Source of the DNA: a virus
DNA length: 40,597 nt
Strand: one strand, 5' to 3'
UHGV virus genome: UHGV-0183645
In this document: in pieces, positions 1 through 28,197 of the stretch
Layout of the letters: each line of letters starts with the position of its first letter
How positions within the stretch are numbered: position 1 is the first letter of the stretch
Notes under the pieces: generated by a model
What the model saw: only the letters and a program-made list of their open reading frames with translations
The model's database searches: none
What the model was told of the DNA's origin: nothing
Translations under genes and position numbers: made by a program

Positions 1-3
1 GTG

Positions 4-33: not shown

Positions 34-57
34 TATGCCCGGAAGGAGGTGGTGCGT

Positions 58-288: not shown

Positions 289-317
289 GAGGTAAAATAG
301 AATGCCTCCCTACAATG

Positions 318-521
318 CTATAACGTTTCTGGTGCCTGCGCTATAATAGGACATTTGTTTGAATCACATTTGTCACCAAACATATTGTATCTGCATTCGG
401 CCATTCCTTTTTCATAACGGCGTCGTTGAGTGTCATTAAGTGATGTAACATCTATGTACTCAACTGTGATACTATAGTCTTTATTTTGCGCGGGGCAGAA
501 TCCAGAGAAGGTTTTACGCAT
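318..521 (-). CDS. hypothetical Cys-rich small protein (67 aa)
   Basis: Second in-frame ATG (521) has an AAGGGGGTGA RBS. Minus-strand -35 TTGATT / 16 nt / -10 TATACT lies just upstream. Orientation is opposite to the tail genes. Confidence 0.45.
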   Translation of the reverse strand: MRKTFSGFCPAQNKDYSITVEYIDVTSLNDTQRRRYEKGMAECRYNMFGDKCDSNKCPIIAQAPETL

Positions 522-589
522 TATATCACCCCCTTCCATGAATTAGTATATCATATGTACGTTTAAAATCAATAAGAGAGGTGGTGCTT

Positions 590-979
590 ATGTCTGCATA
601 CAAAGGCTGGCTATTAAAATTCGATGGACGAGAGCTTCCGATGGACTTCATAGCCCACGCTTCGTACAATGCAACCCCGGACCAGAGGCAGGATGAGGAT
701 TCCTACCAGGACGGATATGGGATATTACACCGAAATGTGTTGCCGCATACCAGAACAAAAATCGAGTGGTCTACTCCGTTTATGCATCTGGCTGATAAGA
801 TAAGGATGCAATCATATTTCCCGGACCGTGTGACCATGGAGGTAGAATACTGGAACGATGAGAGGAACGCATATGTTACGGGAACATTTTACGTACCAGA
901 TATTCAATTTCCATATTATGACACCAGTGAAAACGATATACGATATAATCCCATCCGTATTGCACTAATTGAGTATTAA
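590..979 (+). CDS. phage tail component, possibly a minimal distal tail protein (Dit-like)
   Basis: ATG 590 after an AGAGAGGTGGTG RBS. 130 aa. Lies immediately upstream of the Tal-like gene. Assignment is positional only. Confidence 0.35.
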   Translation: MSAYKGWLLKFDGRELPMDFIAHASYNATPDQRQDEDSYQDGYGILHRNVLPHTRTKIEWSTPFMHLADKIRMQSYFPDRVTMEVEYWNDERNAYVTGTFYVPDIQFPYYDTSENDIRYNPIRIALIEY

Positions 980-991
980 GGAGGTGGTAAG

Positions 992-3073
992 GTGCTGGAT
1001 GTACCAGAGTTTGTGAAACATAGATGCCGTGGAGACAATAACAGGATGGAGACAGTGAAACATCTGGAGCTGTCTTTTTTTAATGGCGGAGTTGATACAC
1101 TGTATCCAGCAAATGACCTGTACCCAGCCGATAACCTGTATCCATCCGACGCGGGGACGCCGTGGCTGACCATCCCAATGGAGCAGATATGCGCGGAGAC
1201 ATTGAGCCTTACCGAAAACTTGTCCTCCGGAAGTAATATCATCTGGGGAAGCTGCGAGGCGGCTAAGTTTGTGGTTACAGTAGCCGACGTAGAGGACGAG
1301 ATTGAGGGCCGGGAGTTTACTGCCACACTGAGTATAGGCGATTATAAGATGGCCTACGGTATCTATGTAGTTGATAGCGTAGTACGGCAGGCTGACCGCA
1401 GAAAGCATAAAATCACGGCCTATGACCGGATGATTAAGTTTGATGTGGATGTCTCAGACTGGTACCATTCAATGTACCCCACAGACGATACCACGCATAC
1501 CATCCAGGAGCTGCGGGACAGTCTTTGCGAGCACATAGGAGTACCACAGCAGCAGACAGTGCTAATCAATGACGAGATGGTGGTCGGCAAGACTATCAGC
1601 CCTGAATCATTGTGCGGCCGAGATGTGCTTAAGGCTATCTGTGAGATTAGTGGTGTGTTCGGCCACTTTGACCGCACTGGCATGTTGACGTATATCAGCC
1701 TGCAGGATACCGGCCTGTATCCGTCTGATACCCTGTATCCTGGAGACGACCTGTATCCGCAGTCCGGATGGGCTGCCGCAGAGGAACTGGAGTATTACAA
1801 AACCATCACTTACGAGGATTATCTGATAGATGGGATAGACCGGGTACAGGTGCGGCAGGAAGATGGAGACATCGGCGCCGTGGTCGGTTCTGGCAGCAAC
1901 GCTTATATAGTGGAGGGTAACTTTTTGGCCTATGGCCTGGGGAGCGCAGACCTTACCAAACTGGCTTGGTCCATTTATGATTCCATTGCTGGCAAAACAT
2001 ACCGGCCGGCTAAAATAGTATCCTATGCTATGCCCTGGATAGAGGTGGGAGACGGCCTGCGGGCAATCACTACGGACACGGAGATAGCTACATTTGTGCT
2101 TACCCGGACCATGAGCGGCATACAGGCCATGATGGATACCGTGGAGGCTAAGGGGACCAAGACGCAAGGACAGAGTTTTGGTGTTGAGAATGAAATCATC
2201 CAATTGAAAGGCAAGACAGCCGTTATAGTGCGTAACGTGGACGAGGTATCAGCCACGGTGACGGACCTGGAGAAGCATACCACGGCTCAATTAAAGGTAG
2301 TGTCTGACCAGATAACCGCAGAAGTTAAGCGGGCCACGGACCAGGAGGTGGAATTGGCCGGCAGCATAAGTGTTCTGGCCGGACAGATTGAAGCCAAAGT
2401 AAGCCGTGGGGATTTGGTAGCCGCCATCAATCTGGAGGTGAATAAGGCCGGATCATGTATCACTATGGAGGCCGGGCATTTTATTTTTAAAGGCAGCAAC
2501 TTTTATGTCAATGAAGATGGTTCCGGTGGTGCCGCTAACGGGAACCTTGCTTGGGATGCCTCCGGCGGGGTGGTTGCTAAGAATATAAAACTGATAATGG
2601 CAGACATCTCTGGTACAACCAACACAAGCACAATTGGCTGTAGTACACTCAGTGCCCAAAATGCTAATATTGACCGCCTGACCGTGAATGGTACAACAGA
2701 GATGGGGGACATCGTGTGTAGGGATGTGTATGGTGACGATATTGAATGTACACAGATATATAGCAGCAGGGCAGGGCAATGGTGGAGTGATAAGCGGCTG
2801 AAATATAATATAATGCCAATTGATACGGAGGAGGCTCTGAGAGTGGTGTTGGGGCTGCGCCCAGTAACCTTCTGCATTAAGGGGACGGATAAAGTGGATA
2901 TGGGTTTCATTGCGCAGGAAGTAATAGAATTAGAATCAACATTGCCCTTATATGGGGAAAAGGATGGATTCTATAGCCTTCCATACCCAAACTATACGTC
3001 ACCTTTGGCTGGCTCAGTACAAGCCCTGTATAACAGGATTATAAGATTGGAGGATGTGGTATATGCCAACTGA
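992..3073 (+). CDS. tail-associated protein (Tal-like N-terminal region) with C-terminal intramolecular-chaperone (peptidase S74-like) auto-processing domain; receptor-binding tail fibre/spike
   Basis: GTG start 5 nt after AAGGAGGTGG. 693 aa. The C-terminal ~130 aa (…MPIDTEEALRVVLGLRPVTF…GFIAQEV…) resembles the chaperone domain of endosialidase/tail-fibre proteins. Two sets of three tandem xDxLYP hexapeptide repeats are present. Confidence 0.65.
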   Translation: MLDVPEFVKHRCRGDNNRMETVKHLELSFFNGGVDTLYPANDLYPADNLYPSDAGTPWLTIPMEQICAETLSLTENLSSGSNIIWGSCEAAKFVVTVADVEDEIEGREFTATLSIGDYKMAYGIYVVDSVVRQADRRKHKITAYDRMIKFDVDVSDWYHSMYPTDDTTHTIQELRDSLCEHIGVPQQQTVLINDEMVVGKTISPESLCGRDVLKAICEISGVFGHFDRTGMLTYISLQDTGLYPSDTLYPGDDLYPQSGWAAAEELEYYKTITYEDYLIDGIDRVQVRQEDGDIGAVVGSGSNAYIVEGNFLAYGLGSADLTKLAWSIYDSIAGKTYRPAKIVSYAMPWIEVGDGLRAITTDTEIATFVLTRTMSGIQAMMDTVEAKGTKTQGQSFGVENEIIQLKGKTAVIVRNVDEVSATVTDLEKHTTAQLKVVSDQITAEVKRATDQEVELAGSISVLAGQIEAKVSRGDLVAAINLEVNKAGSCITMEAGHFIFKGSNFYVNEDGSGGAANGNLAWDASGGVVAKNIKLIMADISGTTNTSTIGCSTLSAQNANIDRLTVNGTTEMGDIVCRDVYGDDIECTQIYSSRAGQWWSDKRLKYNIMPIDTEEALRVVLGLRPVTFCIKGTDKVDMGFIAQEVIELESTLPLYGEKDGFYSLPYPNYTSPLAGSVQALYNRIIRLEDVVYAN

Positions 3074-3293
3074 TAAGGATAAAGATATGGTAGTGTATAG
3101 CCAGAAGGATATACTGGTGATTGGAAATCTAATAAATTCCCTGGAATTCAAAGGGGTGGAGTCGGCGCGGAAGATAGCAACAATAGGGACATTGCTGGAG
3201 ACAGGGAAGCCGCTGGAGAATTATCTTAAAGAGAGGAGTGATGAGGATGGGACTACTGAGCAGGATGAGCAGGGCAGCGACAGCGTTGACTAA
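3063..3293 (+). CDS. hypothetical small protein
   Basis: ORF overlapping the end of the Tal-like gene and the start of the fibre gene. No clear RBS. Confidence 0.3.
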   Translation: MPTDKDKDMVVYSQKDILVIGNLINSLEFKGVESARKIATIGTLLETGKPLENYLKERSDEDGTTEQDEQGSDSVD

Positions 3294-4470
3294 ATACTAT
3301 TTTCCGTTTACCTGGCGGAATAAGCCGAGTCTTGAATCACCAATCAACGAGGTACATCTGAACCACATGGAGGATGGAATAAATGAAATGGATAACCGTA
3401 TCCTCCTTCTGGCCCAGGACAAGGCGGACGCCGCGGATATGGCGAATGTAATCATTGATTTTACCATGGATGATACCACAGGCGTCATGACCTTCACACG
3501 CTTTGATGGTTCAACCTTTACGCATGACACGGCTGTTGAAAAGATTGCGCTTAATTGCTATCTGGAGGGTGACAATTTTGTGCTGGAGCTGGCCGATGGG
3601 ACCAAACAAAAGGTATCCCTAAGCAAGTTTATAGACACGTATACCTTCACAAGCACGGACCGGATACGATTCACAGTCAATGGCAAGAACATATCAGCGG
3701 ACATTCCTGACGGGAAAATCACCCTGGCGAAATTAGAGCCTACAGTCATGTCCACCATCCGCCAGTATACCCTGGATGCGCAGACGTCCAAAGGTGTGGC
3801 GGAACAGGCAGCCAGTACGGCGCAGGGCTGGGCCATCGGAGGCACCGGATTTGAAGGCAATAATGCAAAATATTATGCAAGCAAGTCACAGAGGTATGCG
3901 GTTGGAGGTGTGGAAGAAGGAGATGCAAAAGATAATGCAAAGGCATACTGCGAGGCAGCTAAAGGCTATGCAGAACAGTGTGCAGGGGTTACGGAATTTG
4001 ACGGTACGGCAACATCCGTTAAGGCAACAGATACACAGGGGCTTGTCGTAGCTGCCGGAGCGGACAGTAATGCCCAGGCCCTGCTGGATGCGCTGGCCCG
4101 TAAGGTTGCCCTGGAGCTGGTAAGCAATACAGCCCTTACCACGAAATTGGCGGATTATCTTAAAAAGACTGATATCGTGCAGACAGAGTCCACAGCTACA
4201 AATAAGGTCCCATCCAGCGCGTACCTTAAGCAGGTAAAAGATAGCATAGATAGCAATTTAGCAAAAACTAATGCAAAGGTGACTTTAAACGGCGTCAAGA
4301 ACATTAATGGTTTTACAGCCGTGTATTCTGACCGAACTGACCGGGCATTCCAGCTATATTATGATAACGGTGAGATTGCGTCAATCGCATTTAACAACAC
4401 CGGTATCTGGTATGATTTTTATGACGGACGAAACTGGAAGCAGGTTTGGAAATTTAATAAGCCATCATAA
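3241..4470 (+). CDS. tail fibre protein
   Basis: AGAGAGGAG RBS. Ala/Lys-rich repeats (NAKYYASKSQRYA…DAKDNAKAYCEAAKGYAE) are reminiscent of lambdoid side-tail-fibre repeats. Position is downstream of Tal. Confidence 0.5.
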   Translation: MRMGLLSRMSRAATALTKYYFPFTWRNKPSLESPINEVHLNHMEDGINEMDNRILLLAQDKADAADMANVIIDFTMDDTTGVMTFTRFDGSTFTHDTAVEKIALNCYLEGDNFVLELADGTKQKVSLSKFIDTYTFTSTDRIRFTVNGKNISADIPDGKITLAKLEPTVMSTIRQYTLDAQTSKGVAEQAASTAQGWAIGGTGFEGNNAKYYASKSQRYAVGGVEEGDAKDNAKAYCEAAKGYAEQCAGVTEFDGTATSVKATDTQGLVVAAGADSNAQALLDALARKVALELVSNTALTTKLADYLKKTDIVQTESTATNKVPSSAYLKQVKDSIDSNLAKTNAKVTLNGVKNINGFTAVYSDRTDRAFQLYYDNGEIASIAFNNTGIWYDFYDGRNWKQVWKFNKPS

Positions 4471-4826
4471 TAATCATTTTGTGCTGAAGGCATATAGGTT
4501 CGTAAGGTTTGGAACTTGACTGTTATAACCAATAAATCGTACGGTATCACCTTTACGCACAGAAAACCATATAGGCATTGACGAATTGACTGTGACATCA
4601 TTATTGACCCAAAAAATATTTATCCCATTTATAAGTACATTACAACCCTGAGCTGAGATGTTAAAACCAATGGAACCACAAACTATACAATCCTCTGTAG
4701 CTGCCCAACTTGTACCGTTAGCAAACCCATCTTTAATTTTTTTGCTGGTGTCTATGTATGGTAAATTGCTATTTTAAATAAGTTAACAGGCAGTTTGGGC
4801 GAATTAGAAGGGAAATTGGTTTAAAA

Positions 4827-5216
4827 CTATTCCTCGATATACCAATATTTACGGGTCCGATTATATGGTTCTATACCATGTTCCTGGCAATACATATTAT
4901 ACTTTATTTCCAGCTTTGTAGAAGATTTACATTCCTGTTTTAGACATTTTGAAATCGCCGCATTTGTTTCACGCCCGTCTATAAAATGATAGTGCAGATG
5001 TTTATCCAAAGTGTTTTCTTTATAGCCCAGAAGCCTGCTTGGATAAAAGGAGTAGCGATTTTTACTTTTATCGTAGATGCACAAGAAAACAAGTCCTCTT
5101 TTTATATATCCGAGTATTTCCTTATACTCAGGAGATGTTGTTTTTGAAAGATAGGACTCAAAAGTTGATATATTTTCCAATATATCATTGAGACTCGTAA
5201 CTAAAGTGGCATTCAT
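4827..5216 (-). CDS. hypothetical protein (129 aa), independently transcribed moron
   Basis: ATG with a perfect AAGGAGGT RBS. Own minus-strand promoter. Markedly AT-rich relative to flanking structural genes. No recognisable domain. Confidence 0.6.
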   Translation of the reverse strand: MNATLVTSLNDILENISTFESYLSKTTSPEYKEILGYIKRGLVFLCIYDKSKNRYSFYPSRLLGYKENTLDKHLHYHFIDGRETNAAISKCLKQECKSSTKLEIKYNMYCQEHGIEPYNRTRKYWYIEE

Positions 5217-5247
5217 ATGCTATACCTCCTTATATGGTTGTGGCTAA

Positions 5248-5276
5248 AATATAGCATATCCAAGGCTGGAAGTCAA
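5248..5276 (-). promoter_or_regulatory. sigma70-like promoter for 4827..5216 (-35 TTGACT, 17-nt spacer, -10 TATATT on minus strand)
   Basis: Read directly from the sequence. Spacing is consensus-like. Confidence 0.45.
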
Positions 5277-5378
5277 AAGTGTATATGTGATGAAAAAAAA
5301 ATGAATCGTAACCTGCAAATCAGGTCCCTAAACCAGGGGCTTATTTTATTGCCCGGAAGGGCAGAAAGGAATGAATCT

Positions 5379-5789
5379 ATGAATGAAAAGATTGTATTGA
5401 AAAACGGGAAGGAGTACCCGCTGGTCATCGGCGGCACATCCTCCACGCCCAGCACGCTGAGGCTTATCTTTCAGACAGCGGAGCCGCTGGAGGATATCGT
5501 GTCCTTGTTTGCGGATGCGGCAGCCACGGAGCAGATTAAGACCATTAATGAGGATGGCAGTACCCTGGCCGTATATGATGGCTATACGGTGCTGGATAAC
5601 CCAAAGAGTATTGATGACAACTACCTTATCACGCCAGAGCAGTACGGGGAGGACGGTGCCGTCACCGCCGAGGCCGTATATGGTCGTGTGGCGCTCCTGA
5701 CGCTCTCACAGCCGGGTGTAGGGGTGCAGGTGGATAAACTTAGGGCCGATGTCGATTACGTGGCTATTATGGCCGGTATTGATTTATAG
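5379..5789 (+). CDS. XkdW-like phage protein (tail-fibre-associated), tentative
   Basis: 136 aa from an ATG with an AAAGGAA RBS. Precedes an XkdX-family gene as in PBSX-like tail-fibre/lysis junctions. Confidence 0.35.
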   Translation: MNEKIVLKNGKEYPLVIGGTSSTPSTLRLIFQTAEPLEDIVSLFADAAATEQIKTINEDGSTLAVYDGYTVLDNPKSIDDNYLITPEQYGEDGAVTAEAVYGRVALLTLSQPGVGVQVDKLRADVDYVAIMAGIDL

Positions 5790-5803
5790 GAGGAGATGAG
5801 ACC

Positions 5804-5938
5804 ATGGATGTGAAAGCATTAGCGATAAAGTATTACCCAAAGCTGTGGGACATTGACCGGCTTAAGGCCCTGGTGGCCGCGGGTAAACTGTCCGAGGCGG
5901 ACTACAAGGAGATTACCGGAGAGGACTACACAAAATAA
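5804..5938 (+). CDS. xkdX: XkdX-family small phage protein
   Basis: 44 aa. The motif …KLWDIDRLKALVAAGKLSEADYKEITGEDY matches the XkdX signature (GKIT.EEYK.ITGE.Y). AGGAGG RBS. Missed by the ORF track because it is under 60 aa. Confidence 0.6.
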   Translation: MDVKALAIKYYPKLWDIDRLKALVAAGKLSEADYKEITGEDYTK

Positions 5939-5947
5939 GGAGACATC

Positions 5948-6289
5948 ATGGATGTGATAGCACAATACATAAGTGTTCATTGGGTGGAATGGTTGTTTGT
6001 AGCCATCTCCACCCTTTTAGGATTTGGGTATCGTCAGATACTCAAGAGGCAAAAGGAGGAATCCGTAAAGACAGCGGCCCTCCATGATGGTATGCAGGCA
6101 CTTTTGAGGGACCGTATCATACAGGCCTACAATCATTATCAGGATAAGACATTTTGCCCGATATATGGTAAAGAGAATGTTAAGCGGATGTATGACGCAT
6201 ACCATGTCCTGGGCGGTAATGATGTGGCAACAGAGCTTAAGGACAAACTTATGAAGATGCCGGAGGAGCCGGCAGAAAGAGAGGTATAG
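5948..6289 (+). CDS. lysis-cassette membrane protein with N-terminal TM helix (possible holin-like/XhlA-like)
   Basis: AAGGAG RBS. Hydrophobic N-terminus WVEWLFVAISTLLGFGY. Sits directly before the holin. Confidence 0.4.
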   Translation: MDVIAQYISVHWVEWLFVAISTLLGFGYRQILKRQKEESVKTAALHDGMQALLRDRIIQAYNHYQDKTFCPIYGKENVKRMYDAYHVLGGNDVATELKDKLMKMPEEPAEREV

Positions 6290-6292
6290 AGT

Positions 6293-6553
6293 ATGGATTT
6301 ATCGTTTTTTAGCAATTACACAGTGGTGGTTATCGTGGGTATTTGCCTGATTACAGGCTACATAGCCAAAAAGTGGGTGAAAGACCTGGATAACAAATAC
6401 ATCCCCACCATGGTGGCCCTGCTGGGTGCAGCTCTCAACATCTGGATTATGGGCGGGGTAAGCCCGGATATCATCCTGGCCGGGGCATTTAGCGGGCTGG
6501 CAAGTACGGGCCTGCACCAGGCGTTTAAACAGCTCATAGAGGGTAAACAGTAA
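6293..6553 (+). CDS. holin (phiLC3/LL-H-like, two TM segments)
   Basis: 86 aa with two hydrophobic helices and a charged C-terminus. AGAGAGG RBS. Immediately upstream of the endolysin. Confidence 0.6.
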   Translation: MDLSFFSNYTVVVIVGICLITGYIAKKWVKDLDNKYIPTMVALLGAALNIWIMGGVSPDIILAGAFSGLASTGLHQAFKQLIEGKQ

Positions 6554-6582
6554 TTGCGATATCGCAACTTGTGACGTTACAA
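6554..6582. promoter_or_regulatory. two adjacent TTG-N8-CAA palindromes (TTGCGATATCGCAA perfect; TTGTGACGTTACAA imperfect)
   Basis: Seen directly. Candidate protein-binding site between holin and endolysin. Confidence 0.3.
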
Positions 6583-6590
6583 CTTTTCAT

Positions 6591-6622
6591 GGCTCAGGGA
6601 TGCCCCTGGGCCTTATTTTTTT
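6591..6622 (+). terminator. hairpin GGCTCAGGG-atgc-CCCTGGGCC followed by TTATTTTTTT
   Basis: 9-bp stem with one mismatch and a T-run. Possible partial terminator between holin and endolysin. Confidence 0.4.
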
Positions 6623-6639
6623 GATTGGAGGAAAACACT

Positions 6640-7413
6640 ATGAGTAAAACAGCAACAGGATTAATTCAGCACTGCAAGGACAAACTGGTCACACCCTACG
6701 TTTACGGTGCCAAAGGCGAGGTCCTTACCCAAGCCATCCTTGACCGCCTCGCCCGGGAGAACCCAGGCACATACACATCCACCTACAAAGCCAAGGCGGC
6801 CAAGTACATAGGCCAGCGCTGCACGGACTGTTCCGGCCTCATCAGCTGGTATACGGGCATCCTACGCGGCAGCTACAACTACCACGACACAGCAGCGGAG
6901 CGCGTGAGTATCGGCCATCTGGACGAGTCCATGGTCGGCTGGGCGCTCTGGAAGCCGGGCCACATCGGGGTGTACATAGGTGATGGTTGGTGCATTGAGG
7001 CCAAGGGCATCAACTACGGGACTATCAAGTCCAGAGTGACCGCCACACCCTGGCAGAAGGTCCTCAAGCTCTGCGACATCGACTACACACCGGTCCCAGT
7101 GACATACACCCAGGGCTTCCAGCCGGCCGCAGACGGTAACCGTTGGTGGTATCAGTTTACAGACGGCAGCTATGCGGCCAATGGCTGGTACTGGCTCCGG
7201 GAGGCCACGGACGGCACCTGCGGCTGGTATCTGTTTGACAGCGAGGGCTACATGCTGACCGGCTACCAGGTGGACCCTGCCGGTGAAGCATTTTTACTCT
7301 GTCCAGTCAAGGGCAGCGACGAGGGCAAGTGCATGATTACGGATGCCAGGGGCGTGCTGCGGATTGCAGAAGAGTACGACATGGTAAATCGACGGTACGT
7401 GTTTACATGGTAA
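6640..7413 (+). CDS. endolysin: NlpC/P60-family peptidase domain plus C-terminal choline-binding-type cell-wall-binding repeats
   Basis: Catalytic Cys (DCSGLISW) and His (GHIGVYIG). Repeats GWYWL…GWYLFDSEGYMLTGYQ. GGAGGAA RBS before ATG 6640. Confidence 0.8.
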   Translation: MSKTATGLIQHCKDKLVTPYVYGAKGEVLTQAILDRLARENPGTYTSTYKAKAAKYIGQRCTDCSGLISWYTGILRGSYNYHDTAAERVSIGHLDESMVGWALWKPGHIGVYIGDGWCIEAKGINYGTIKSRVTATPWQKVLKLCDIDYTPVPVTYTQGFQPAADGNRWWYQFTDGSYAANGWYWLREATDGTCGWYLFDSEGYMLTGYQVDPAGEAFLLCPVKGSDEGKCMITDARGVLRIAEEYDMVNRRYVFTW

Positions 7414-8663: not shown

Positions 8664-8699
8664 AGCGGGTACCGGATAAACCGGGCCCGCCCTATTTTT
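8664..8699. terminator. GC-rich hairpin (GCGGGTACCGG…CCGGGCCCGC) flanked by an A-run and a T-run
   Basis: Lies downstream of the ligase gene on the minus strand. Confidence 0.45.
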
Positions 8700-9639
8700 C
8701 AATGCATTCTGCTGCTGTTTTGTCAAACCTTAATCCTTTAAATACCGGCTGCCGCATCCCTCCAGATTTGGTATGATGCATAAACTTTACAATGCATACA
8801 AGGTCTGGAGAGAGCCATACGGCCCGGTCATTGCCGTGGCCTGCCGGATATGCGATAAATGGGGCAGATGGAAGCGTGGGATGTCTGGAGATGATATCAA
8901 ACGCCTGCCCACTGACACCCATGGTAACATGTCCTTTATAGATTAATGTATTACCCCGGTACTGTCCCAGGATAATGCTGGTCATGTGGTTACTTTTTAG
9001 GATATAGCCGCATATCACAAAATCATCATCTTGCATGACCTTCATTTTTATCCAATCAGAAGTGCTTTTATCTTGAATATAGATGCTATCTTTCTTTTTA
9101 GCCACAATTCCTTCTAACTTCCGCTTCAAAGCAAAATCAAAGAGGTTTGTCCCGCAACCTTCCGTATATCTGGATATGGCCATCCTTGGGCCATCCGAAA
9201 CGACCTTGGAAAGTAAATCCTTACGTTCTGTCAACGGCTGCAGCAATGTGTCTTTATAATCGCAATACAGAATGTCGAATGCCAGGAATGTAGCCGGGTT
9301 GCGTTTGGCGTCTAACTCAATTTTAAAACGGTCAGACATCAAGCTCCTTCTTTGGATTAACGAAAAATCGGGGCGCCCATCTTTCAGTATAAATAATTCC
9401 CCGTCCAGAATGCAGCGTTTTTTAACCTGCCTGCTGATTTCTTTCAGTTCGGGTACCTTATTCAGCATCCGCACGTTCCTTTTGTTTCTCAGTTCTGGCA
9501 GTTTTCCTGGTTCCAGATATGCCACACAGCGCTCTCCATCCCATTTCAGCTCATACATATACTTGGGGTCATCGAAAGGGGCCATTTCTTTGCCGATAAG
9601 CATAGGCTTGATATTCTTACTGTCAAAAAGGTCCATCAT
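8692..9639 (-). CDS. ATP-dependent DNA ligase (LigD-type ligase domain only)
   Basis: Motif I ELKWDGER. Motifs V/VI EGIVAKKKDS…DWIKMK. Start overlaps the ku stop (ATGA). Confidence 0.85.
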   Translation of the reverse strand: MMDLFDSKNIKPMLIGKEMAPFDDPKYMYELKWDGERCVAYLEPGKLPELRNKRNVRMLNKVPELKEISRQVKKRCILDGELFILKDGRPDFSLIQRRSLMSDRFKIELDAKRNPATFLAFDILYCDYKDTLLQPLTERKDLLSKVVSDGPRMAISRYTEGCGTNLFDFALKRKLEGIVAKKKDSIYIQDKSTSDWIKMKVMQDDDFVICGYILKSNHMTSIILGQYRGNTLIYKGHVTMGVSGQAFDIISRHPTLPSAPFIAYPAGHGNDRAVWLSPDLVCIVKFMHHTKSGGMRQPVFKGLRFDKTAAECIEK

Positions 9640-10445
9640 GCCGTTGCGGCCTTTTTCCGCGGCTTACGTTTGGTCGGTGGTTTATTGTCTGATACCTGTG
9701 CAAGACTACGTTGCAAAGCATCCATGATATCAATAACATTGTCCTGATGTTCTGCTGGCGCATTAACGATTTCCTGTCCGTTTATTTTAGCTTCTATAAT
9801 CTGTCTTAGCCTTATCTGGTATTCATCATGATACAATTCTGGCTCAAACTCTTTGTCCATGGAGTTAATAAGCATTTTTGCCATATCCAGTTCTTGCTGC
9901 TGCAATTCGGGGTGCGCCGGTTCCTTTGGGATTTCCTTCACCTCATCCGCGAAAAATAGGGTTTCCACAAGCATTCCCTTTGGCGTGGGAATTAGACACA
10001 GTAGCTTTTCGGATTGCCCCATGACTGTCTTTGCTATTGCCACCTTACCCTCATCAAACATGGCCTTACGGAGTAATTCATAGGCTTTGTCTCCGCCAGC
10101 CTCTACAACTGCATGATAAGTTTTGTCAAAATAAATAGGACGTATATTTTTAATGTCTGTAAAATGCAAAATCTGTATGGTTTTATCCTTCTCGGTTTTC
10201 GCCTTCTCAAAATCTGTGTCAGTCATCGTTACATACTGACCAGGTGCAAACTCAAAGCCTTTGACAATATCTTGAGTGCCTACTTCTTTCCCACAGTTGG
10301 CACAGACTTTTTTATACTTGACTCTTGACCCATCCTCCTTGCATAATTGGTTAAAATGGATGTCATTATCCTGCGTGGCCGTGTGTAGCGCCACCGGGAT
10401 GTGTACAAGGCCAAAACTGATTGCCCCTTTATGCGCTGCTGGCAT
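9636..10445 (-). CDS. ku: Ku protein (NHEJ DNA-end-binding)
   Basis: GAISFGLVHIPVALHTAT…VKYKKVCANCG…YHDEYQ are typical of bacterial Ku (YkoV/Mt-Ku). Internal ATG 10445 with an AGAGAGGTGA RBS is preferred over the track start. Confidence 0.9.
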   Translation of the reverse strand: MPAAHKGAISFGLVHIPVALHTATQDNDIHFNQLCKEDGSRVKYKKVCANCGKEVGTQDIVKGFEFAPGQYVTMTDTDFEKAKTEKDKTIQILHFTDIKNIRPIYFDKTYHAVVEAGGDKAYELLRKAMFDEGKVAIAKTVMGQSEKLLCLIPTPKGMLVETLFFADEVKEIPKEPAHPELQQQELDMAKMLINSMDKEFEPELYHDEYQIRLRQIIEAKINGQEIVNAPAEHQDNVIDIMDALQRSLAQVSDNKPPTKRKPRKKAATA

Positions 10446-10498
10446 ATAATCACCTCTCTCTTTTTTAGGTGTAGTATGTCCAGTTAAGTTAATATATA

Positions 10499-10768
10499 TC
10501 ACATAGCCATTGATGATGAGTTACTGACAGTCATAGTCCAAAATCCCAGTAGCGCATAATAATTTAGACCAATCTCATGGCGTTGATTTTTACATGATAC
10601 AGTACAACGGTATTGGGCATATTCGCGGTATTTGTCCGGTTTTTTCGTGCAGATATAGTTTTCGATTTTATAGCATGGCGCATCTTTATCGAGTGAGAGC
10701 TTAAGCCATAGGGGTTGAGTATCTCCGTCAGTATTAAAAGATGCGATAACATAGACACGTTTTGTCAT
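10499..10768 (-). CDS. hypothetical protein (89 aa), first gene of the ku-ligase operon
   Basis: ATG with an AAGGAGTGAG RBS. Immediately downstream of the LexA-box promoter. Confidence 0.5.
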   Translation of the reverse strand: MTKRVYVIASFNTDGDTQPLWLKLSLDKDAPCYKIENYICTKKPDKYREYAQYRCTVSCKNQRHEIGLNYYALLGFWTMTVSNSSSMAM

Positions 10769-10790: not shown

Positions 10791-10820
10791 ATTATACGAA
10801 CATATGTTCTTTTTGTAAAG
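10791..10820 (-). promoter_or_regulatory. sigma70 promoter (-35 TTTACA / 17 nt / -10 TATAAT, minus strand) with LexA/Cheo box CGAACATATGTTCT (10797..10810) filling the spacer
   Basis: Seen directly. The box matches the Gram-positive SOS-box consensus CGAAC-N4-GTTCG at 13 of 14 positions. Confidence 0.6.
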
Positions 10821-11867: not shown

Positions 11868-12122
11868 AAACAGTAGTTAAATTGAGTTCGTTAGTAACAC
11901 ATTAATAACAAATCAATCATAGATTCCTTTATTTACTGGGTTTTTCGGCTGTGCTGGATTAAGAAAATCTTAAAATTGCGCCGAGAGTCAAAAACATTGA
12001 TAATTCGACATTTATCTTAGAACCCGCATAAAACAAGGAAATATTCAATATTGAGTAGTTATATTAAACAATGTGTTGTGTTGAGCAATTTCTTGCAGGT
12101 TAGTAACAAATTAATAACAGAT
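11868..12122. repeat. putative attP region: ~25-bp imperfect direct repeats GTTAGTAACA(c/a)ATTAATAACA(a/g)AT flanking a ~200-bp AT-rich segment at the 3' end of int
   Basis: Repeats seen at 11869..11893 and 12095..12119. Location is immediately downstream of the integrase gene. Confidence 0.35.
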
Positions 12123-13289
12123 TTTTATTTTGCAAATTTCGTTCATCAGGTCCTCGAGGTCTCTATGACCATATTTTTTATTTGTTATATCTTGTCCGAA
12201 GGAATGTCCAAGCATTCTTATTCGGTCATTCTCATTAACTTCATAGTGTTCGCACAATTTTGAAAATGTATGCCTGCAATCATGAGGAGTATGTTTGGTC
12301 ATTCCCAGTTCCTGTAACTTGGTATACATGCTAGCCCGGAACTTGTTTGCACTGTCCAATAAGTACCCATCTCTGTCTAATCGGCATTTCACTAGGGACA
12401 GTATACCGGGATGTATTGGGACAATACGATTTTTGCTTGTCCTTGTTTTTACACCACCCTGAAAATAGTTTTCATCAAGATTCACCGTTAGTGATTCATA
12501 GGCGACTATCCTAAATCCACTGTAGCACATAATCAGAATAAATTCTACTGTTGGGTCATCTTTATTATCCCATAGGATTTTTAAATCAGATTCTTCAAAA
12601 GGTACACCCTGCTCGTCATCATCTTCGATATTGATTTTTACTTTATCAGAATAATCTTTTTCACACAGACCCTGCATATCAGCATAAGCATACATTTGGT
12701 GATATAGATTTATAACATGCTCCAAACTGGCATATTTTAGTTCACAAGCATCTACGACAGCTTGCAAATCCTTGTGACGCAACTCCTTGAATATTTTATC
12801 ATGAAGAACGGAGCAATTCTTAAATGCTGCTTGGGAGGCATACATGGTACTCTTGGAGTATTTCTTTTTCTTTGTATTTCCGTCTTTGTCAGTATATTTC
12901 CAATCATAAAATTGTTCGTATACATCTTTGAAGGTCGGGTCAACATTGGGGGAGTTTGTTTCCTTACCAGACACAATATTACATACCTGGTTGTAATCAG
13001 CCAGGAGTTTCTTGACCAATTTGCCTAAATCCTTATCATCTTCACCGACCTCTGGTTTTGGCGGATACACACCCGGTACATATGTACCTGCCTTATATGC
13101 CGTTAAAATAGAAAAGCCATAATACCAGTCATCCACGTAGGCAAGTGCTGGTCTCGTGACAGCCTTACCATCTTCGTCAAATTCTTCTGCAGGTGGATAT
13201 ACGCCGAATGGATTGCTACGGTTGGCCCCCAAGAATCGTATGGAACCGTAACCATTGGGGAGCTTGGGATACTTCCTTCTTTTTGCCAT
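12111..13289 (-). CDS. int: tyrosine integrase
   Basis: C-terminal HDCRHTF and KKYGHRDLEDL supply the R-H-R-Y catalytic residues. N-terminal MAKRRKYPKLPNGYGSIRF is typical of Firmicutes phage integrases. AGGATGGTGA RBS. Confidence 0.9.
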   Translation of the reverse strand: MAKRRKYPKLPNGYGSIRFLGANRSNPFGVYPPAEEFDEDGKAVTRPALAYVDDWYYGFSILTAYKAGTYVPGVYPPKPEVGEDDKDLGKLVKKLLADYNQVCNIVSGKETNSPNVDPTFKDVYEQFYDWKYTDKDGNTKKKKYSKSTMYASQAAFKNCSVLHDKIFKELRHKDLQAVVDACELKYASLEHVINLYHQMYAYADMQGLCEKDYSDKVKINIEDDDEQGVPFEESDLKILWDNKDDPTVEFILIMCYSGFRIVAYESLTVNLDENYFQGGVKTRTSKNRIVPIHPGILSLVKCRLDRDGYLLDSANKFRASMYTKLQELGMTKHTPHDCRHTFSKLCEHYEVNENDRIRMLGHSFGQDITNKKYGHRDLEDLMNEICKIKICY

Positions 13290-13630: not shown

Positions 13631-14062
13631 TTATTGTAATTTTAAATTAAGTAACTCTATTGGATAACCCGTGCAATCGCAGAACTGTTCTTTTGTAAAC
13701 CCATCATACTCATGCAACAAATTGTCTGTAATAAGCAAACATGCAGCAAATAGATTGGCCTGCCGCTCTATCCTTGATGTAAGTAACAATGTATGTGCTC
13801 CCATAAAAGTACAGTTCTCCTTTGAATGGAACACAGCATGACCAAGTTCATGAGCAATTACAACGCGCAGGAAGGCATCATCATCAATACAAGAGTTTAC
13901 ATAAATGCAACGATTGTGTTTCATATATTTGTAAAATCCTGCAATTTTTCCAAGTGGGACAAAGAATACCTTTACTTTCAGACATTTAGCCAACTCTAAG
14001 GGGTCATTAGTTCCGAATTTTCTTGTTAGATATGTAATCTTCTTCCGTATTCTCTCGTTCAA
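13631..14062 (-). CDS. ImmA/IrrE-family metallopeptidase (anti-repressor protease)
   Basis: HEXXH motif IAHELGHAVFH. Downstream partner of the CI-like repressor. TTG start with a GAAGGTGA RBS. Confidence 0.8.
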   Translation of the reverse strand: MNERIRKKITYLTRKFGTNDPLELAKCLKVKVFFVPLGKIAGFYKYMKHNRCIYVNSCIDDDAFLRVVIAHELGHAVFHSKENCTFMGAHTLLLTSRIERQANLFAACLLITDNLLHEYDGFTKEQFCDCTGYPIELLNLKLQ

Positions 14063-14093: not shown

Positions 14094-14522
14094 CTATTTT
14101 TTTTTGTTCTTGTTCGGATTGTATTTTACCTTATTCTCTCGTTTTAATTGTGTTAAACCAAGCTCCAATGCCTTGCGGAGCAGTTCCAAGGATTCATCAT
14201 CAATTGGCTCTCCGTTATAATAAAGAGGGCCGTCAACATTATTTTCAATCTCTCCCATAATTCTGTCAAGGTCGCGGCCTATTTCACGCTCATCCTTAGG
14301 TGTAAGGCTGGTTTCTTTTATTATTTCGTCATTTTCACCTGTTAATAGATAAGATAGAGGGACTCCAAAATAGTCAGCTATTTTTTGAAGTTTTTCTTGC
14401 TTGAAGTTCCACCTACCTTGTTTCCATCCAGAAAATGAAGCTGTGGAAATTCCTGTTGCTTTGGCTACTTGGTAAGTAGTCACGCCGTATTTTTGTAACA
14501 ATTTTTCAAAATACTCGTACAT
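14094..14522 (-). CDS. CI-like phage repressor, XRE-family HTH
   Basis: N-terminal YQVAKATGISTASFSGWKQGR is an HTH. AAAGGAAAA RBS. Classic ImmR/ImmA pair. Confidence 0.8.
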   Translation of the reverse strand: MYEYFEKLLQKYGVTTYQVAKATGISTASFSGWKQGRWNFKQEKLQKIADYFGVPLSYLLTGENDEIIKETSLTPKDEREIGRDLDRIMGEIENNVDGPLYYNGEPIDDESLELLRKALELGLTQLKRENKVKYNPNKNKKK

Positions 14523-24824: not shown

Positions 24825-24997
24825 GACAAGCCGGGGGAAACCCCGGCAAATAAAAACGAAAGCTGAGAACATATGTACGAAACAATGAAACAGCGGTGGA
24901 CACCCGCCAAGATGACTCCACCGCTCCCATAGTAACTACCTGAGTATATTATACCCTACTCAGGTGGATAAATCAATCAATATGAGGAGGATATGAT

Positions 24998-26053
24998 ATG
25001 AGTACACAGGCAGTTAAAGCGGAAATTATAAACAATGTCATGGTAGCAATGTCGTATTACATCCAGCAACAGACCATCCTGTCAATGCTGGAACAGGTAA
25101 TGCAGCAGGAACTGGTCCGGGTTAACATGGAGGAGATTACCACACTGCCGGCAGAGCGGCAGGATAGCATTGCGGAGCGTAATAAGTACCTCATCCAGCT
25201 CTTTATGATTAAAAAGCGAAACCTGAAACGCGGGACGCTAGAGGGATACCTTGGAGCAATCAAGCGACTGCTAACAGTTATAAACACTAAGTCCCTGGAC
25301 CAGGTGGACGAGACAGATATAGAGTGGTATCTGGCCCAATATGAGCGGCGTGAAGGGCTGCACGGTAAGCTGGAGACTACTACATACAATAATGAGCGCC
25401 GGTTTCTGTCAGCCTTTTATACCTGGATGCGGAAGTCAAAGTTTATCGCTGACAACCCAGTAGAATCCACGGAGCCCAAGAAGGTATTCTTAAAACCCAT
25501 TGATTACTATTCCCCGGAGGAAATCATACGAATCAGAGATGCTTGTCAGAATGAGCGTGAAAGAGCCATCATTGAGGTATTCCGCAGTACCGGCGCCCGG
25601 GTGGGAGAGATTGCAGAGATTACCATGGAGCAGGTCAACCTGGAAACAGGAGATATCTGGATTCAGGGCGAGAAGGGCGGGAAATACCGGACTCTGTATT
25701 TGGATGACGATGCCAAGCACTACTATAAGCTCTATTTGGAGACGAGGACAGATAGCTCTCCATACATGTTTCCGAGTTCCAGGCGTCCATATGGGAGAAT
25801 GTGTACCTGTAGCTTCCGAAACATTATGAAAACCATAGGAAGGAGGGCCGGACTCACCTGCAGGGTATACCCGCACAAGATGAGAAAGACCCTGGGAATG
25901 AATCTTAAAAACAAAGGGGTGGATATTGGGACCATACAGGAGGTCCTGGGACATGCCAGCCCGGCAGTCACATCACAGTATTATGCACAGTCTACACCAC
26001 ATACCCTGCGGAGTGTAAGGGAGCGTGTGTCGTATAGGAGGATAGTAAATTGA
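24998..26053 (+). CDS. second tyrosine site-specific recombinase (XerC/XerD-like)
   Basis: RSTGARVGEI … HKMRKTLGMNL … LGHASPAVTSQYY supply the R…H-x-x-R…Y catalytic set. GAGGAGG RBS. Confidence 0.85.
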   Translation: MSTQAVKAEIINNVMVAMSYYIQQQTILSMLEQVMQQELVRVNMEEITTLPAERQDSIAERNKYLIQLFMIKKRNLKRGTLEGYLGAIKRLLTVINTKSLDQVDETDIEWYLAQYERREGLHGKLETTTYNNERRFLSAFYTWMRKSKFIADNPVESTEPKKVFLKPIDYYSPEEIIRIRDACQNERERAIIEVFRSTGARVGEIAEITMEQVNLETGDIWIQGEKGGKYRTLYLDDDAKHYYKLYLETRTDSSPYMFPSSRRPYGRMCTCSFRNIMKTIGRRAGLTCRVYPHKMRKTLGMNLKNKGVDIGTIQEVLGHASPAVTSQYYAQSTPHTLRSVRERVSYRRIVN

Positions 26054-26463
26054 AAATAACAAGGGATATGCTTAACAACTATAGACGCTTAAAACGGGAG
26101 ATACCGATACTTGAGGCAGAGCTGGTGGAAATGAAAAAGGGGGATAACGGATTTAATAATAGCACGATTTTTGATTATAGAGATGGATACCCACGGCCTC
26201 AGAGTGTAGTGGGATTTGACTGGCCGCTATATGAGCACAGAAAGAAAGTGCTTAATAGCAAAAAGGAACGGGTAAAAGCCGTGGAAAGGTGGATTAATTC
26301 CATAGAGGACGGGCAGACCAGATGTGTATTTCGGATGTTCTACATGGATGGCATGAGTTGGTTAAAGATAGCCGAGAAACTTAAGTGTGCAGGTGACCAT
26401 ATGGAGGACTACCCCAGAATATGTATAAGGGATTATTACCTTAAAAAAATGAATATTGCATAA
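26050..26463 (+). CDS. ArpU-family late transcriptional regulator (sigma-70 region 4-like)
   Basis: LNNYRRLKREIPILEAEL and the C-terminal FRMFYMDGMSWLKIAEKL HTH. Position just upstream of the packaging genes. Confidence 0.55.
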   Translation: MKITRDMLNNYRRLKREIPILEAELVEMKKGDNGFNNSTIFDYRDGYPRPQSVVGFDWPLYEHRKKVLNSKKERVKAVERWINSIEDGQTRCVFRMFYMDGMSWLKIAEKLKCAGDHMEDYPRICIRDYYLKKMNIA

Positions 26464-26600: not shown

Positions 26601-26674
26601 TGCGAGGTGGAGCAGTCTGGCAGCTCAATGGCCTCATAAGCCATAGGTCGGCGGTTCAAATCCGTCCCTCGCTA
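26601..26674 (+). tRNA. tRNA-Met (anticodon CAT)
   Basis: Manual cloverleaf fold: acceptor TGCGAGG/CCTCGCT, U8, D-stem GAGC/GCTC, anticodon stem ATGGC/GCCAT with loop CTCATAA, T-arm GGCGG-TTCAAAT-CCGTC, discriminator A. The 1:72 pair is mismatched. Confidence 0.7.
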
Positions 26675-26682
26675 CTATCAAA

Positions 26683-26831: not shown

Positions 26832-27110
26832 ATGAAGATGACAGAACGTGAGACACAGATATACCAGTACATTGTTGATTACATGCAGGAGCATATGTAT
26901 GCACCGACCATACGGGAGATATGCAAAGCGGTTGGACTGAGCTCCACTGCATCTGTTGCGTTTTACATGGAGCACCTGGCAGGAAAGGGATTGATAGAGA
27001 TAGGACAAGATGCGCCCAGGAAAATACGACTGGTCGGGTACAGTATCGTGCCTAATAGTATGATAGAGGAACTGAATAGATTAAGAGCGGAAAGAGAGGT
27101 ATCTGAGTAA
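26832..27110 (+). CDS. LexA N-terminal DNA-binding-domain homologue lacking the S24 peptidase/autocleavage domain
   Basis: MTERETQIYQYIVDYMQEHMYAPTIREICKAVGLSSTASVAFYMEHLAGKGLIEI…PRKIRL aligns with the LexA winged-helix domain (…GYPPSVREI..AVGL.S.S.V..HL..LE.KG.I…RAIEL). The protein ends at 92 aa. Confidence 0.65.
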   Translation: MKMTERETQIYQYIVDYMQEHMYAPTIREICKAVGLSSTASVAFYMEHLAGKGLIEIGQDAPRKIRLVGYSIVPNSMIEELNRLRAEREVSE

Positions 27111-27411: not shown

Positions 27412-28197
27412 GTGGTGGTCGTGCCAAGAGGGCGGAGTCCCAACCGGGATAAAGCATTTGAGATATATAAGCAGCACGGGGGTAAAATTACAAATCGTGA
27501 AATTGCAGCCCAGCTGGATGAGGACGAGAAGGTTATAGCTGTCTGGAAGAGCCGGGATAAGTGGAATGTTGTACAACAAAAGAAAAAGGAACGTTGTACA
27601 ACAAAATCCAGAGGTGGGCAGCCAGGAAACAAGAATGCTGTAGGGCATGGAGGGACTGGGCCGCCTGGGAATAAGAATGCGGTTAAGACGGGGGAGTTTG
27701 AATCCCTCTTTTTTGATACCCTTACACCAGATGAGCAGGAACTTATTGCAGTCCTGCCGAGGGATAAGGGAGAGCTGCTGCTGCAGGAGATACAACTCTT
27801 GACCGTGAGGGAGCGTAGGATGTTACAGCGCGTCAATGACCTCAAACAGGCAGCAGAGGAGCAGACTAAGAAGAAGGCCGAAGGCATGACAAAGGTAAAG
27901 TGGAAAGATGGTTTTGGCGCCAACGGTCCCATTGAGGTTACAGAGTATGAGGGTGTCTTGGGGCAGATACAGTCCGTTGAGGATGCCCTTACCCGTGTCC
28001 AGGCCAGGAAGCAGAAAGCGATTGATTCCCTGCATCGGTTTGGCTTTGATGATGCCCGCCTGGAAATCGAGTTGATGAAGCTTGATATCGCAACCCTCAA
28101 GGTGGATAATCAGGACCAGGAAACGGAAGATGATGGATTCCTGGCGGCTATGGATGCTGAGGCATCAAGTCTGTGGGGGGATGTGGATGGGGATTAA
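27412..28197 (+). CDS. terS: terminase small subunit
   Basis: Repeated GGQPGNKNAVGHG / GPPGNKNAVKTG motifs typical of Gram-positive phage TerS. Immediately upstream of terL. Confidence 0.6.
   Translation: MVVVPRGRSPNRDKAFEIYKQHGGKITNREIAAQLDEDEKVIAVWKSRDKWNVVQQKKKERCTTKSRGGQPGNKNAVGHGGTGPPGNKNAVKTGEFESLFFDTLTPDEQELIAVLPRDKGELLLQEIQLLTVRERRMLQRVNDLKQAAEEQTKKKAEGMTKVKWKDGFGANGPIEVTEYEGVLGQIQSVEDALTRVQARKQKAIDSLHRFGFDDARLEIELMKLDIATLKVDNQDQETEDDGFLAAMDAEASSLWGDVDGD

Follow-up and report, generated by a model that had tools for sequence, protein, structure and literature searches.

The 40,597-nucleotide (nt) virus genome UHGV-0183645, referred to here at its full length as the window, encodes a second, Xer-like tyrosine recombinase in addition to a canonical integrase. 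The second gene lies at positions 24998–26053 of the plus strand, and two short hairpins stand directly upstream of it. A preliminary description of this DNA took these hairpins for possible recombination sites, but our comparative analyses point to another role. We estimate a probability of about 0.6 that the two hairpins form a conserved and so far undescribed control module for the recombinase, and that they are not crossover sites. This proposal is built on a predicted promoter, a putative terminator, covariation that differs by strand and an alternative pairing, all of which come out of the comparison of related sequences. We infer repression, rather than activation, by the antisense RNA that the module would produce, as well as any role that a nearby SOS-like box may have in the control.

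The relatives of the recombinase comprised 167 IMG/VR stretches, of which 80 were kept, and 21 loci in GTDB genomes. The comparative sets drawn from them consisted of 59 or 65 unique sequences, 49 hairpin variants, 68 proteins and 23 representative families. More than 100 related loci of Lachnospiraceae phages and prophages share a module of about 110 nt ahead of the recombinase, and it is retained in relatives down to 36% amino acid identity of the protein. In the aligned upstream regions, the two-hairpin architecture is present in all but a few loci, with conserved loops and variable stems. Although the human gut abounds in temperate Lachnospiraceae phages, little is understood of them, and a second recombinase conserved at the junction of the early and late genes in well over 100 contigs hints at a life-cycle step outside the textbook lambda scheme. 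The candidate RNA motif would also reuse, ahead of a recombinase gene of Gram-positive phages, the UUGGCG loop of enterobacterial plasmid copy-number control.

Hairpin 1 and the predicted antisense RNA

The two perfect inverted repeats of 8 base pairs (bp) that had been noticed upstream of the gene are both present, and hairpin 1 in fact extends to 9 bp. Its core arms, GCGGTGGA and TCCACCGC, occupy 24893–24900 and 24917–24924, and the pairing is perfect over 24892–24900/24917–24925, with 16 nt between. On folding, this interval resolves into a 2-nt bulge, an inner stem of 4–5 bp and an apical loop of 6–8 nt, UUGGCG/UUUGGUCG. As a minus-strand RNA, hairpin 1 (24892–24925) would therefore consist of the outer 9-bp stem, the 2-nt bulge, the inner stem CAUC/GGUG and the apical loop 5'-UUGGCG-3' (24905–24910; CGCCAA on the plus strand), as judged from folding and covariation. 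The loop matches that of the ColIb-P9 repZ leader. About 140 positions, 18 loop lengths and a factor of 4^-8 give an expectation of roughly 0.04 perfect 8-bp hairpins by chance, and roughly 1e-3 for two of them. Conservation is the stronger argument, as both helices covary in the relatives.

In hairpin 1, the changes are compensatory in 10 of 10 pairs, and the covariation amounts to 0.526, compared with 0.232 after shuffling (reached in 0 of 500 shuffles) and with at most 0.22 in controls with slid partners. The inner stem covaries as well, occurring as CAUC/GGUG, AAC/GUU, ACC/GGU and GUC/GAC. The internal mismatches, when read on the plus strand, are eight A.C and a single G.T, which means that they are G.U wobbles on the minus strand. 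The minus-strand fold is better than the plus-strand fold in all 49 unique variants, by 5.0 kcal/mol on average. Moreover, at least five T residues within the 9 nt past the hairpin are found on the minus side in 56 of 57 unique sequences, and on the plus side in 3 of 57. The covariance model of hairpin 1, termed R1, detects the window copy on the minus strand with 52 bits and an E value of 2.7e-11.

The minus-strand motif TTGNNN-17-TAnnnT, with a spacer of 18 nt in one case, is present at the same position in 59 of 59 unique sequences. In the window, this putative promoter has the −10 box TATAAT (24948–24953), located in the loop of hairpin 2, and the −35 box TTGATT (24971–24976), separated by a 17-nt spacer and situated 8 nt from the Shine-Dalgarno sequence (SD) of the recombinase. 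A consensus scan scored it at 10 matches out of 12. The combination of the minus-strand promoter with the hairpin-1 terminator and its U-tract leads us to predict an antisense RNA of 51–62 nt across the family, with a median of 56. The predicted cis-antisense RNA of the window, about 58 nt long, would run on the minus strand from 24941 to 24884 (AGGUAGUUACUAUGGGAGCGGUGGAGUCAUCUUGGCGGGUGUCCACCGCUGUUUCAUU), if its ends are placed according to the −10 box and the U-tract. It is composed of a 5' tail, hairpin 1 and the U-tract, and has a minimum free energy (MFE) of −20.9 kcal/mol (z −2.1). Hairpin 1 is thus best described as the body and intrinsic terminator of a predicted, conserved antisense RNA. 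The suggestion that the repeats might be simple terminators lacking a partner site holds in part: hairpin 1 is a putative terminator and has no partner, but it would terminate a conserved antisense RNA and is not trivial. At gathering scores, Rfam 15 recognizes only a tRNA in the window, and three relaxed scans returned nothing below an E value of about 0.5.

Other explanations of the hairpin-1 loop were considered and rejected. The presence of Rep genes in two relatives (L071 and L077) suggested a nick site for an HUH Rep protein; the window encodes no HUH protein, and the idea was dropped because the promoter, the U-tract and the wobble pattern fit hairpin 1 better. An attP core, a mimic of the tRNA 3' end (NCCA), a T-box-like sequence, a −35 box of a further promoter and the start of a small open reading frame (ORF; a minus-strand TTG ORF at 24910–24728) would each require conservation that is absent: the relatives show neither a consistent −10 box nor a shared peptide, and they differ in their upstream genes. 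A literature search for a "xerDC RNA motif" brought up only the unrelated STAXI motif.

Hairpin 2 in the recombinase leader

Hairpin 2 has perfect 8-bp arms, CCTGAGTA and TACTCAGG, at 24939–24946 and 24957–24964, which extend to 14-nt arms of 86% complementarity (24933–24946/24957–24970). As a hairpin of the recombinase mRNA leader (24933–24970, plus strand), it would hold the antisense −10 box in its loop. When the sequences were aligned without gaps and with the promoter as anchor, the changes in hairpin 2 proved compensatory in 9 of 13 pairs, and the covariation is 0.443, as against 0.277 after shuffling (0 of 500) and at most 0.16 in slid controls. The internal mismatches on the plus strand are eight G.T and no A.C. 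The strand bias of the G.U wobbles (minus strand for hairpin 1, plus strand for hairpin 2) suggests that the two hairpins work as RNA rather than as sites in duplex DNA, and hairpin 2 appears to behave as a plus-strand RNA helix.

The loop and 3' arm of hairpin 2 are complementary to the region from the SD to the AUG in 19 of the 23 representative families, with a mean z of −2.4. In the MFE fold of the window leader (−37.9 kcal/mol, z −3.4), positions 24934–24962 pair with 24983–25015, and this pairing buries both the SD GAGGAGG (24984–24990), which faces the 3' arm of hairpin 2, and the AUG (24998). When the part that the antisense RNA would cover was blocked in constrained folds, the mean predicted SD accessibility across clades fell from 0.45 to 0.26, a result that in many clades favours repression. 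Hairpin 2 is not followed by a U-tract on the plus strand, and we therefore predict no attenuator terminator in that orientation. A pairing of its 5' arm with codons 2–6 is real in the clade of the window, but it is significant in just 3 of 23 families and was discarded as not general.

These features also bear on the possibility that hairpin 2 is, alone or in addition to an RNA role, the dif/lox-like core site of the recombinase. A dimer would then occupy the arms, strand exchange would take place in the AT-rich centre, the −10 box would provide autoregulation, and the site would serve to resolve or create multimers or to exchange DNA between co-infecting phages. Hairpin 2 of the window can indeed be written in an 11-6-11 arrangement, as ACCTGAGTATA, TTATAC and CCTACTCAGGT, with arms symmetric at 9 of 11 positions, and the arm-to-arm distance is constant in the clade of at least 61% amino acid identity. 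The palindromic sites of XerS, XerH and Cre typically lie beside their genes, the closest plasmid relatives of the recombinase (at most 30% identity) are annotated as xerA-like, and two independent natural chimeras, one in L003 and one in L205/L145, have their crossover in the hairpin-2 centre. However, hairpin-2 loops measure between 10 and 25 nt depending on the clade, and a spacer of 6–8 bp cannot be made in the clades with loops of 19–25 nt, although these have preserved both the helix and the geometry of the promoter. Two loci (L041 and L042) have recombinases that are 98.3% identical, and yet their hairpin-2 arms differ at no fewer than five positions, with compensation; the mismatches are also all G.T, with no A.C among them. 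The chimeras are rare, and their crossovers lie within the longest run of identity, which is also where the Erf-like protein of the phage itself would put them by recombination over short homologies. Finally, a search for a second copy of either inverted repeat (hairpin-1 loop with up to 3 mismatches, hairpin-2 arm with up to 2, and long direct or inverted repeats) found none in the 40.6 kb of the window. We consider a dif/lox-like site unlikely, and the initial reading of the repeats as recombination sites has largely been replaced by that of an antisense-RNA and leader-switch module.

A composite scheme can also be drawn, in which hairpin 2 is both an RNA switch and the dif/lox-like site of the recombinase. 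With the crossover at the antisense −10 box, the enzyme would silence the antisense RNA that represses it, and the mosaic junctions described below would arise from its site-specific crossovers. The hairpin-1 stem-loop with its UUGGCG loop would be a portable antisense cassette that phages of distant hosts have in common, standing before genes that are dangerous if expressed at the wrong time, such as those for recombinases, integrases and anti-repressors. We regard this combination as rather improbable.

The preliminary description had also raised a DNA-inversion system or a captured integrative module, in which the repeats would be site halves with a partner elsewhere. The window does hold a second recombinase beside a canonical integrase, and the NCBIfam models of tyrosine-type DNA invertases match it weakly (2.4e-11; 43.6 bits against a cut-off of 221). 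Against this, no partner of either repeat or of the loop was found in the window, including the tail-fibre region at 1–4.5 kb, and flanking direct repeats were not found. Model R1 detects a single hairpin 1 per locus in nearly all loci searched, the exception being the prophage L095. In the cultured C. scindens phage phiCs5676-1, which is induced and packaged, there are likewise two integrases, one beside the repressor and a second, 52% identical to that of the window, which ends the early region and is located mid-genome. Both the inversion switch and the captured module therefore appear extremely unlikely.

A model for control of the recombinase

Taking the two hairpins as a control module, we propose the following mechanism. 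Early transcription would read through into the recombinase gene and the regulator gene that overlaps it. Meanwhile, the sigma-A-type promoter on the minus strand would fire leftwards and constitutively, and transcription would stop at hairpin 1 and its U-tract. The product, some 58 nt long, would match the 5' leader of the recombinase mRNA with perfect complementarity. As in control of the ColIb-P9/R1 type, the UUGGCG apical loop would first kiss the CGCCAA loop of the leader, and pairing would then zip over the full length of about 58 nt. In the leader, hairpin 2 would compete with the fold that pairs its own loop and 3' arm to the SD and AUG. By occupying the 5' flank and the outer 5' arm of hairpin 2, the antisense RNA would tip this balance towards the SD-sequestered fold. 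The duplex of antisense RNA and leader could also be a substrate of RNase III. The recombinase, and perhaps the late regulator too, would stay low until early transcription outruns the antisense RNA.

Several points weigh against this proposal. In the clade of the window itself, the SD accessibility in the constrained fold is 0.29 in both states and thus unchanged, and the antisense RNA would reach just the outer part of the hairpin-2 5' arm; for these two reasons the direction of the control is uncertain. The fold energies of hairpin 2 favour neither strand (20 versus 27), so its assignment to the plus strand depends on the wobble counts, which represent about four independent events, and on the complementarity to the SD. 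The U-tract of the window (GUUUCAUUG) is poorer than that of most relatives, and the antisense RNA is a predicted transcript throughout. All counts across relatives derive from homologous sequences and are not independent of one another. Stem-loops of the hairpin-1 type also stand upstream of unrelated genes, which encode an anti-repressor, a further integrase and uncharacterized proteins. Lastly, a control module gives no account of the action of the enzyme that it controls.

Apparent portability of hairpin 1

The occurrence of the same-loop stem-loop before unrelated genes, in AT-rich and in GC-rich phage contigs, suggests a different division of roles. Hairpin 1 could be a portable terminator or insulator, the minus-strand promoter could act by transcriptional interference or make an RNA with a distant target in the host or phage, and hairpin 2 could merely stabilise the mRNA. 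The two copies in L095, the position of hairpin 1 at a mosaic boundary and a conservation of the loop beyond the needs of pairing in cis would all be in line with such elements. On the other hand, the exact 15-nt loop occurs in at least 120 IMG/VR stretches, and a detected homologue of the recombinase then follows in 61 of the 117 analysed, while many of the remaining matches are chance 15-mers inside coding DNA. We found no complementary target for the loop elsewhere in the window, and hairpin 2 is complementary to the SD/AUG in 19 of the 23 families. The arrangement in one locus, L097, in which the apical unit of hairpin 1 is turned onto the mRNA strand, fits kissing in cis and not a fixed target in trans. 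Such a flip would be tolerated because both RNAs remain complementary and one of them still carries UUGGCG. Elements that are not dedicated to the recombinase are, in our judgement, a doubtful explanation of the whole module. For hairpin 1 taken by itself, the stem-loop looks like a portable antisense cassette that is not specific to the recombinase, given that its type precedes unrelated genes in other phages and is present twice in L095.

In L097 (9902–9939, a Ruminococcus metagenome-assembled genome), the apical unit AACTTTGGCGAGTT is the reverse complement of AACTCGCCAAAGTT in L098, and the promoter, the U-tract and hairpin 2 have kept their orientation. The second stem-loop of L095, TAGTCCCT[CCACCGACCAAAGTTA]AGGGACTA at 2173–2209, lies 7.7 kb upstream of the main copy, precedes a phrog_674 gene and comes with an extended −10 box in minus-strand orientation. 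On very different contigs, the same loop of 15–17 nt is found in hairpins with unrelated stems (L109/L138/L196/L200, L176/L192/L198/L208, L203 and L215), and the genes downstream of these encode unknown proteins, a 370-amino-acid integrase, a phrog_2480 protein and an Ant-type anti-repressor.

A BLAST comparison of the window element with cultured phages gave no match. Pseudomonas phage D3112 (L220) contains an exact 16-nt match, TCCACCCGCCAAGATG, within 1010–1040, where the minus strand can form the hairpin UUCCAUC[UUGGCG]GGUGGAA. The hairpin of this type is situated just upstream of a ner-like gene in 27 D3112-like phages, which is a suggestive location. The 16-nt match is within the chance expectation for a 16-mer in 2.3 Gb.

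Comparison with known systems

The proposed module shares several traits with the plasmid systems ColIb-P9 (Inc RNA/repZ) and R1 (CopA/CopT). There, a short cis-antisense RNA is made from a promoter inside the leader of its target, a long stem interrupted by a bulge carries a 6-nt recognition loop, and the action falls on a part of the leader that precedes the SD, which is not itself the target; the same would apply to the phage RNA. The hexanucleotide UUGGCG/CGCCAA at the apex is shared with ColIb-P9. UUGG is reportedly an instance of the YUNR U-turn motif, which Franch and colleagues are said to have found, in 1999, to speed the pairing of antisense and target. A function of UUGGCG as a pairing-recognition motif would explain why the hairpin-1 loop is more conserved than the stem. 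There are also clear differences. The target is a Rep protein in ColIb-P9/R1 and a tyrosine recombinase in the phage module; UUGGCG lies on the mRNA in ColIb-P9, whereas in the phages it lies on the predicted antisense RNA, except in L097; and unlike in the plasmid systems, neither a leader peptide nor a pseudoknot partner was found in the phage module.

According to the title of Asano et al. (1998, JBC 273:11826), a paper cited in PMC10724649 and PMC3753616, UUGGCG is the loop motif through which the ColIb-P9 Inc RNA binds its target. In the ColIb-P9 sequence NC_002122.1, we located UUGGCG at the apex of a hairpin (292–348) upstream of repA/repZ. Our covariance model R1 gave no score on the ColIb-P9 rep leader, the loop hexanucleotide alone being in common, and the Rfam CopA/ctRNA models provided no link between hairpin 1 and the ColIb-P9/R1 systems. 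The likeness is one of mechanism and loop, and not of family membership.

Antisense RNAs also restrain enzymes that rearrange DNA, or phage genes that are harmful if untimely, as in IS10 (RNA-OUT/RNA-IN) and phage P22 (sar/ant), where a divergent promoter lies in the 5' end of the target. The phage module resembles both in directing a predicted antisense RNA against such a gene from a promoter embedded in the 5' end of the target. While the IS10 and P22 RNAs cover the SD and the start codon, the predicted RNA of the phage module falls short of the SD by about 45 nt on its upstream side; it would have to act via refolding of hairpin 2 or via cleavage. Among Firmicutes plasmids, pMV158 RNAII, pT181 RNAI and pIP501 RNAIII are antisense RNAs of about 50–90 nt with a single hairpin that doubles as the terminator. 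The phage module is similar to these Gram-positive counter-transcribed RNAs (ctRNAs) in its predicted size and hairpin-terminator and dissimilar in that hairpin 2 forms no attenuator terminator. A ctRNA_pT181 match on the minus strand of L071 was non-significant (E 3.3). Our literature search retrieved no relevant report of a second recombinase beside ArpU, or of antisense control of a tyrosine recombinase.

The recombinase

Our analyses support the assignment of the gene as a second tyrosine recombinase that is full-length and of the Xer type, and not an ordinary arm-binding integrase. The ORF at 24998–26053 encodes 351 amino acids that match Pfam Phage_integrase (PF00589) with 1.8e-32 and 112.9 bits, against a cut-off of 27.1. 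The product also matches PHROG integrase families. Its predicted active site comprises R201, H293, R296, H319 and Y329, and these catalytic residues (R, H, R, H and Y) are retained in 66–68 of the 68 family members, over a range of 36–100% identity. The position of the active site in the beta-hairpin is K or R. The closest relatives of solved structure are the XerC-like 4a8e (3.6e-27), XerA (5hxy) and XerD (1a0p). In NCBIfam, XerA, XerD and XerC come first, every one far below its equivalog cut-off (161.4 versus 220 for XerA, 115.1 versus 329.6 for XerD and 108 versus 335 for XerC); XerS scores 60.7 versus 267. The Pfam matches include a SAM-like core-binding domain at the N-terminus, and only SAM-like core-binding domains with no arm-binding domain among them. 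No second Xer gene was found nearby. From the profile hidden Markov model and structure matches and the conserved catalytic residues, we conclude that the recombinase is an active-looking, simple Xer-like enzyme of the non-arm-binding kind, which by its sequence stands outside the named Xer families.

The gene is located mid-genome with phage genes on either side, unlike the genes of lambda-type integrases, which encode an N-terminal arm-binding domain and lie next to attP at a prophage end. The protein shares with XerA/dif, XerS/difSL, XerH/difH and P1 Cre/loxP the two-domain organization without an arm-binding domain. It differs from these single-recombinase Xer and Cre enzymes by its scores below the cut-offs, about 65 additional amino acids at the N-terminus, the mid-genome phage setting and a site that is at most putative.

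As for its function, the recombinase might act in site-specific recombination of phage DNA during lytic growth, for example in the interconversion of monomers and multimers, but we put this forward only tentatively. The idea that it has been domesticated as a DNA-binding regulator of the late switch and has ceased to act as a catalyst draws on its position directly upstream of, and overlapping, a candidate late activator. The retention of the catalytic residues throughout the family speaks against such a loss of activity, and other relatives have an HUH Rep or a helix-turn-helix (HTH) protein downstream instead, which makes a purely regulatory role very unlikely. A protelomerase with a telomere site was rejected, because the protein is a 351-amino-acid Xer-type enzyme and the palindromes are too small, as was a stand-in Holliday-junction resolvase, since the phage encodes its own RusA, Erf-like and NinB proteins. 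The phage-plasmid lifestyle evoked in the preliminary description finds no echo in the window, where neither par nor plasmid-rep genes were seen and the replication genes are DnaD/DnaC-like.

Distribution and mosaicism of the module

The hosts of the related loci include Enterocloster (94% identity in E. citroniae, of which strain DSM 19261 carries the copy L084), C. asparagiforme, Lacrimispora, Hungatella, Roseburia, Robinsoniella and Bariatricus. The flanks of the loci are mosaic, and hairpin 1, hairpin 2 and the recombinase are inherited together. In 18 of 56 pairs with near-identical recombinases, the left edge of hairpin 1 coincides with a break in similarity. On these two grounds, the conserved unit consists of hairpin 1, hairpin 2 and the recombinase. 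The gene that follows varies: depending on the locus, it encodes a DUF1492/sigma-r4 protein, an HUH Rep or a triple-HTH protein. In L071 (2381–3481) and L077 (1615–2397), an HUH gene resembling rolling-circle Rep proteins and relaxases (PF23343) lies directly after the recombinase. Some loci have decayed: in L131, hairpin 1 is present, the hairpin-2 centre is deleted and an HTH gene takes the place of the recombinase, and in L145 and L205 the recombinase is cut to 60–74 amino acids.

The position of the gene has a practical consequence for annotation, in that the mid-prophage "integrase" of such phages does not mark a prophage boundary; many IMG/VR contigs appear to be cut there. Many of the contigs with relatives start just 150–2500 nt upstream of the recombinase, which may reflect provirus-boundary callers that take any "integrase" as the prophage end.

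Neighbouring genes and the SOS-like box

An SOS-like box, AGAACATATGTACG, is found at 24866–24879, 13 nt beyond the hairpin-1 terminator, and is a candidate by sequence match. In keeping with the Cheo-like box that had been pointed out upstream of the gene, it departs from the 12-nt core GAAC-N4-GTTC at one position and from the 14-nt CGAACATATGTTCG at two. In 15 of 65 unique relatives, compared with 0 of 65 in a control stretch, a box lies 19–31 nt upstream of hairpin 1, always with a single mismatch in the core. No promoter overlapping the box at 24866–24879 was found. It is perhaps a roadblock, or a site for a phage protein with a LexA DNA-binding domain (LexA-DBD). A perfect LexA/Cheo box, GAACATATGTTC, is located at 10798–10809, upstream of the Ku/ligase operon. 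A protein of 92 amino acids (26832–27110, plus strand) that consists of the LexA DNA-binding domain only (PF01726, 1.7e-16) is encoded between the tRNA and terS, and homologues of it are found near the recombinase in many relatives. This protein could bind the GAAC boxes.

A GC-rich hairpin, GCCGGGG-N4-CCCCGGC (24830–24847), lies just past the stop of the upstream ORF and is followed by an A-run on the plus strand. It recurs in several relatives and may be a back-up terminator for the minus strand.

From the left, the window contains the tail-fibre and lysis genes (1–7.4 kb), Ku and ligase, int, CI and the early genes (HNH, Erf-like, NinB, RusA and DnaD/DnaC-like), after which come the recombinase and the regulator. 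To the right of the regulator are the tRNA-Met, the LexA-DBD protein and TerS/TerL, and the tape measure lies at the right end. The recombinase thus sits at the early/late junction, and not in the late region where it had initially been placed. The canonical integrase (12111–13289, minus strand) adjoins ImmA-like (13631–14062) and CI-like (14094–14522) genes, as originally reported. With the tail-fibre and lysis genes at one end and the tape measure at the other, the 40.6-kb window looks like a circularly permuted complete phage genome.

The candidate late regulator, a DUF1492/sigma-70-region-4-like protein (26050–26463, plus strand), begins with a TTG that overlaps the recombinase stop by 4 nt, and for this reason it is presumably co-transcribed with the recombinase. 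It scores 21.3 bits for DUF1492, against a cut-off of 21.5, and matches phrog_36, "transcriptional regulator" (3.9e-16); NCBIfam gave no match, and the label "ArpU" could not be confirmed.

The left part of the window (1–7413) includes tail-fibre genes with a Peptidase_S74 chaperone (992–3073) and a lysis-type NlpC/P60 gene. A non-homologous end joining pair on the minus strand (8692–10502) consists of Ku (9636–10502) and an ATP-dependent DNA ligase (8692–9639). The phage-encoded tRNA-Met (CAT) occupies 26601–26675 on the plus strand, between the candidate late regulator and the LexA-DBD gene. Within the terS gene, two 19-nt direct repeats, GGAAYGTTGTACAACAAAA, stand 25 nt apart (27563–27606), each with the palindrome TTGTACAA, and are a candidate pac or TerS-binding site.

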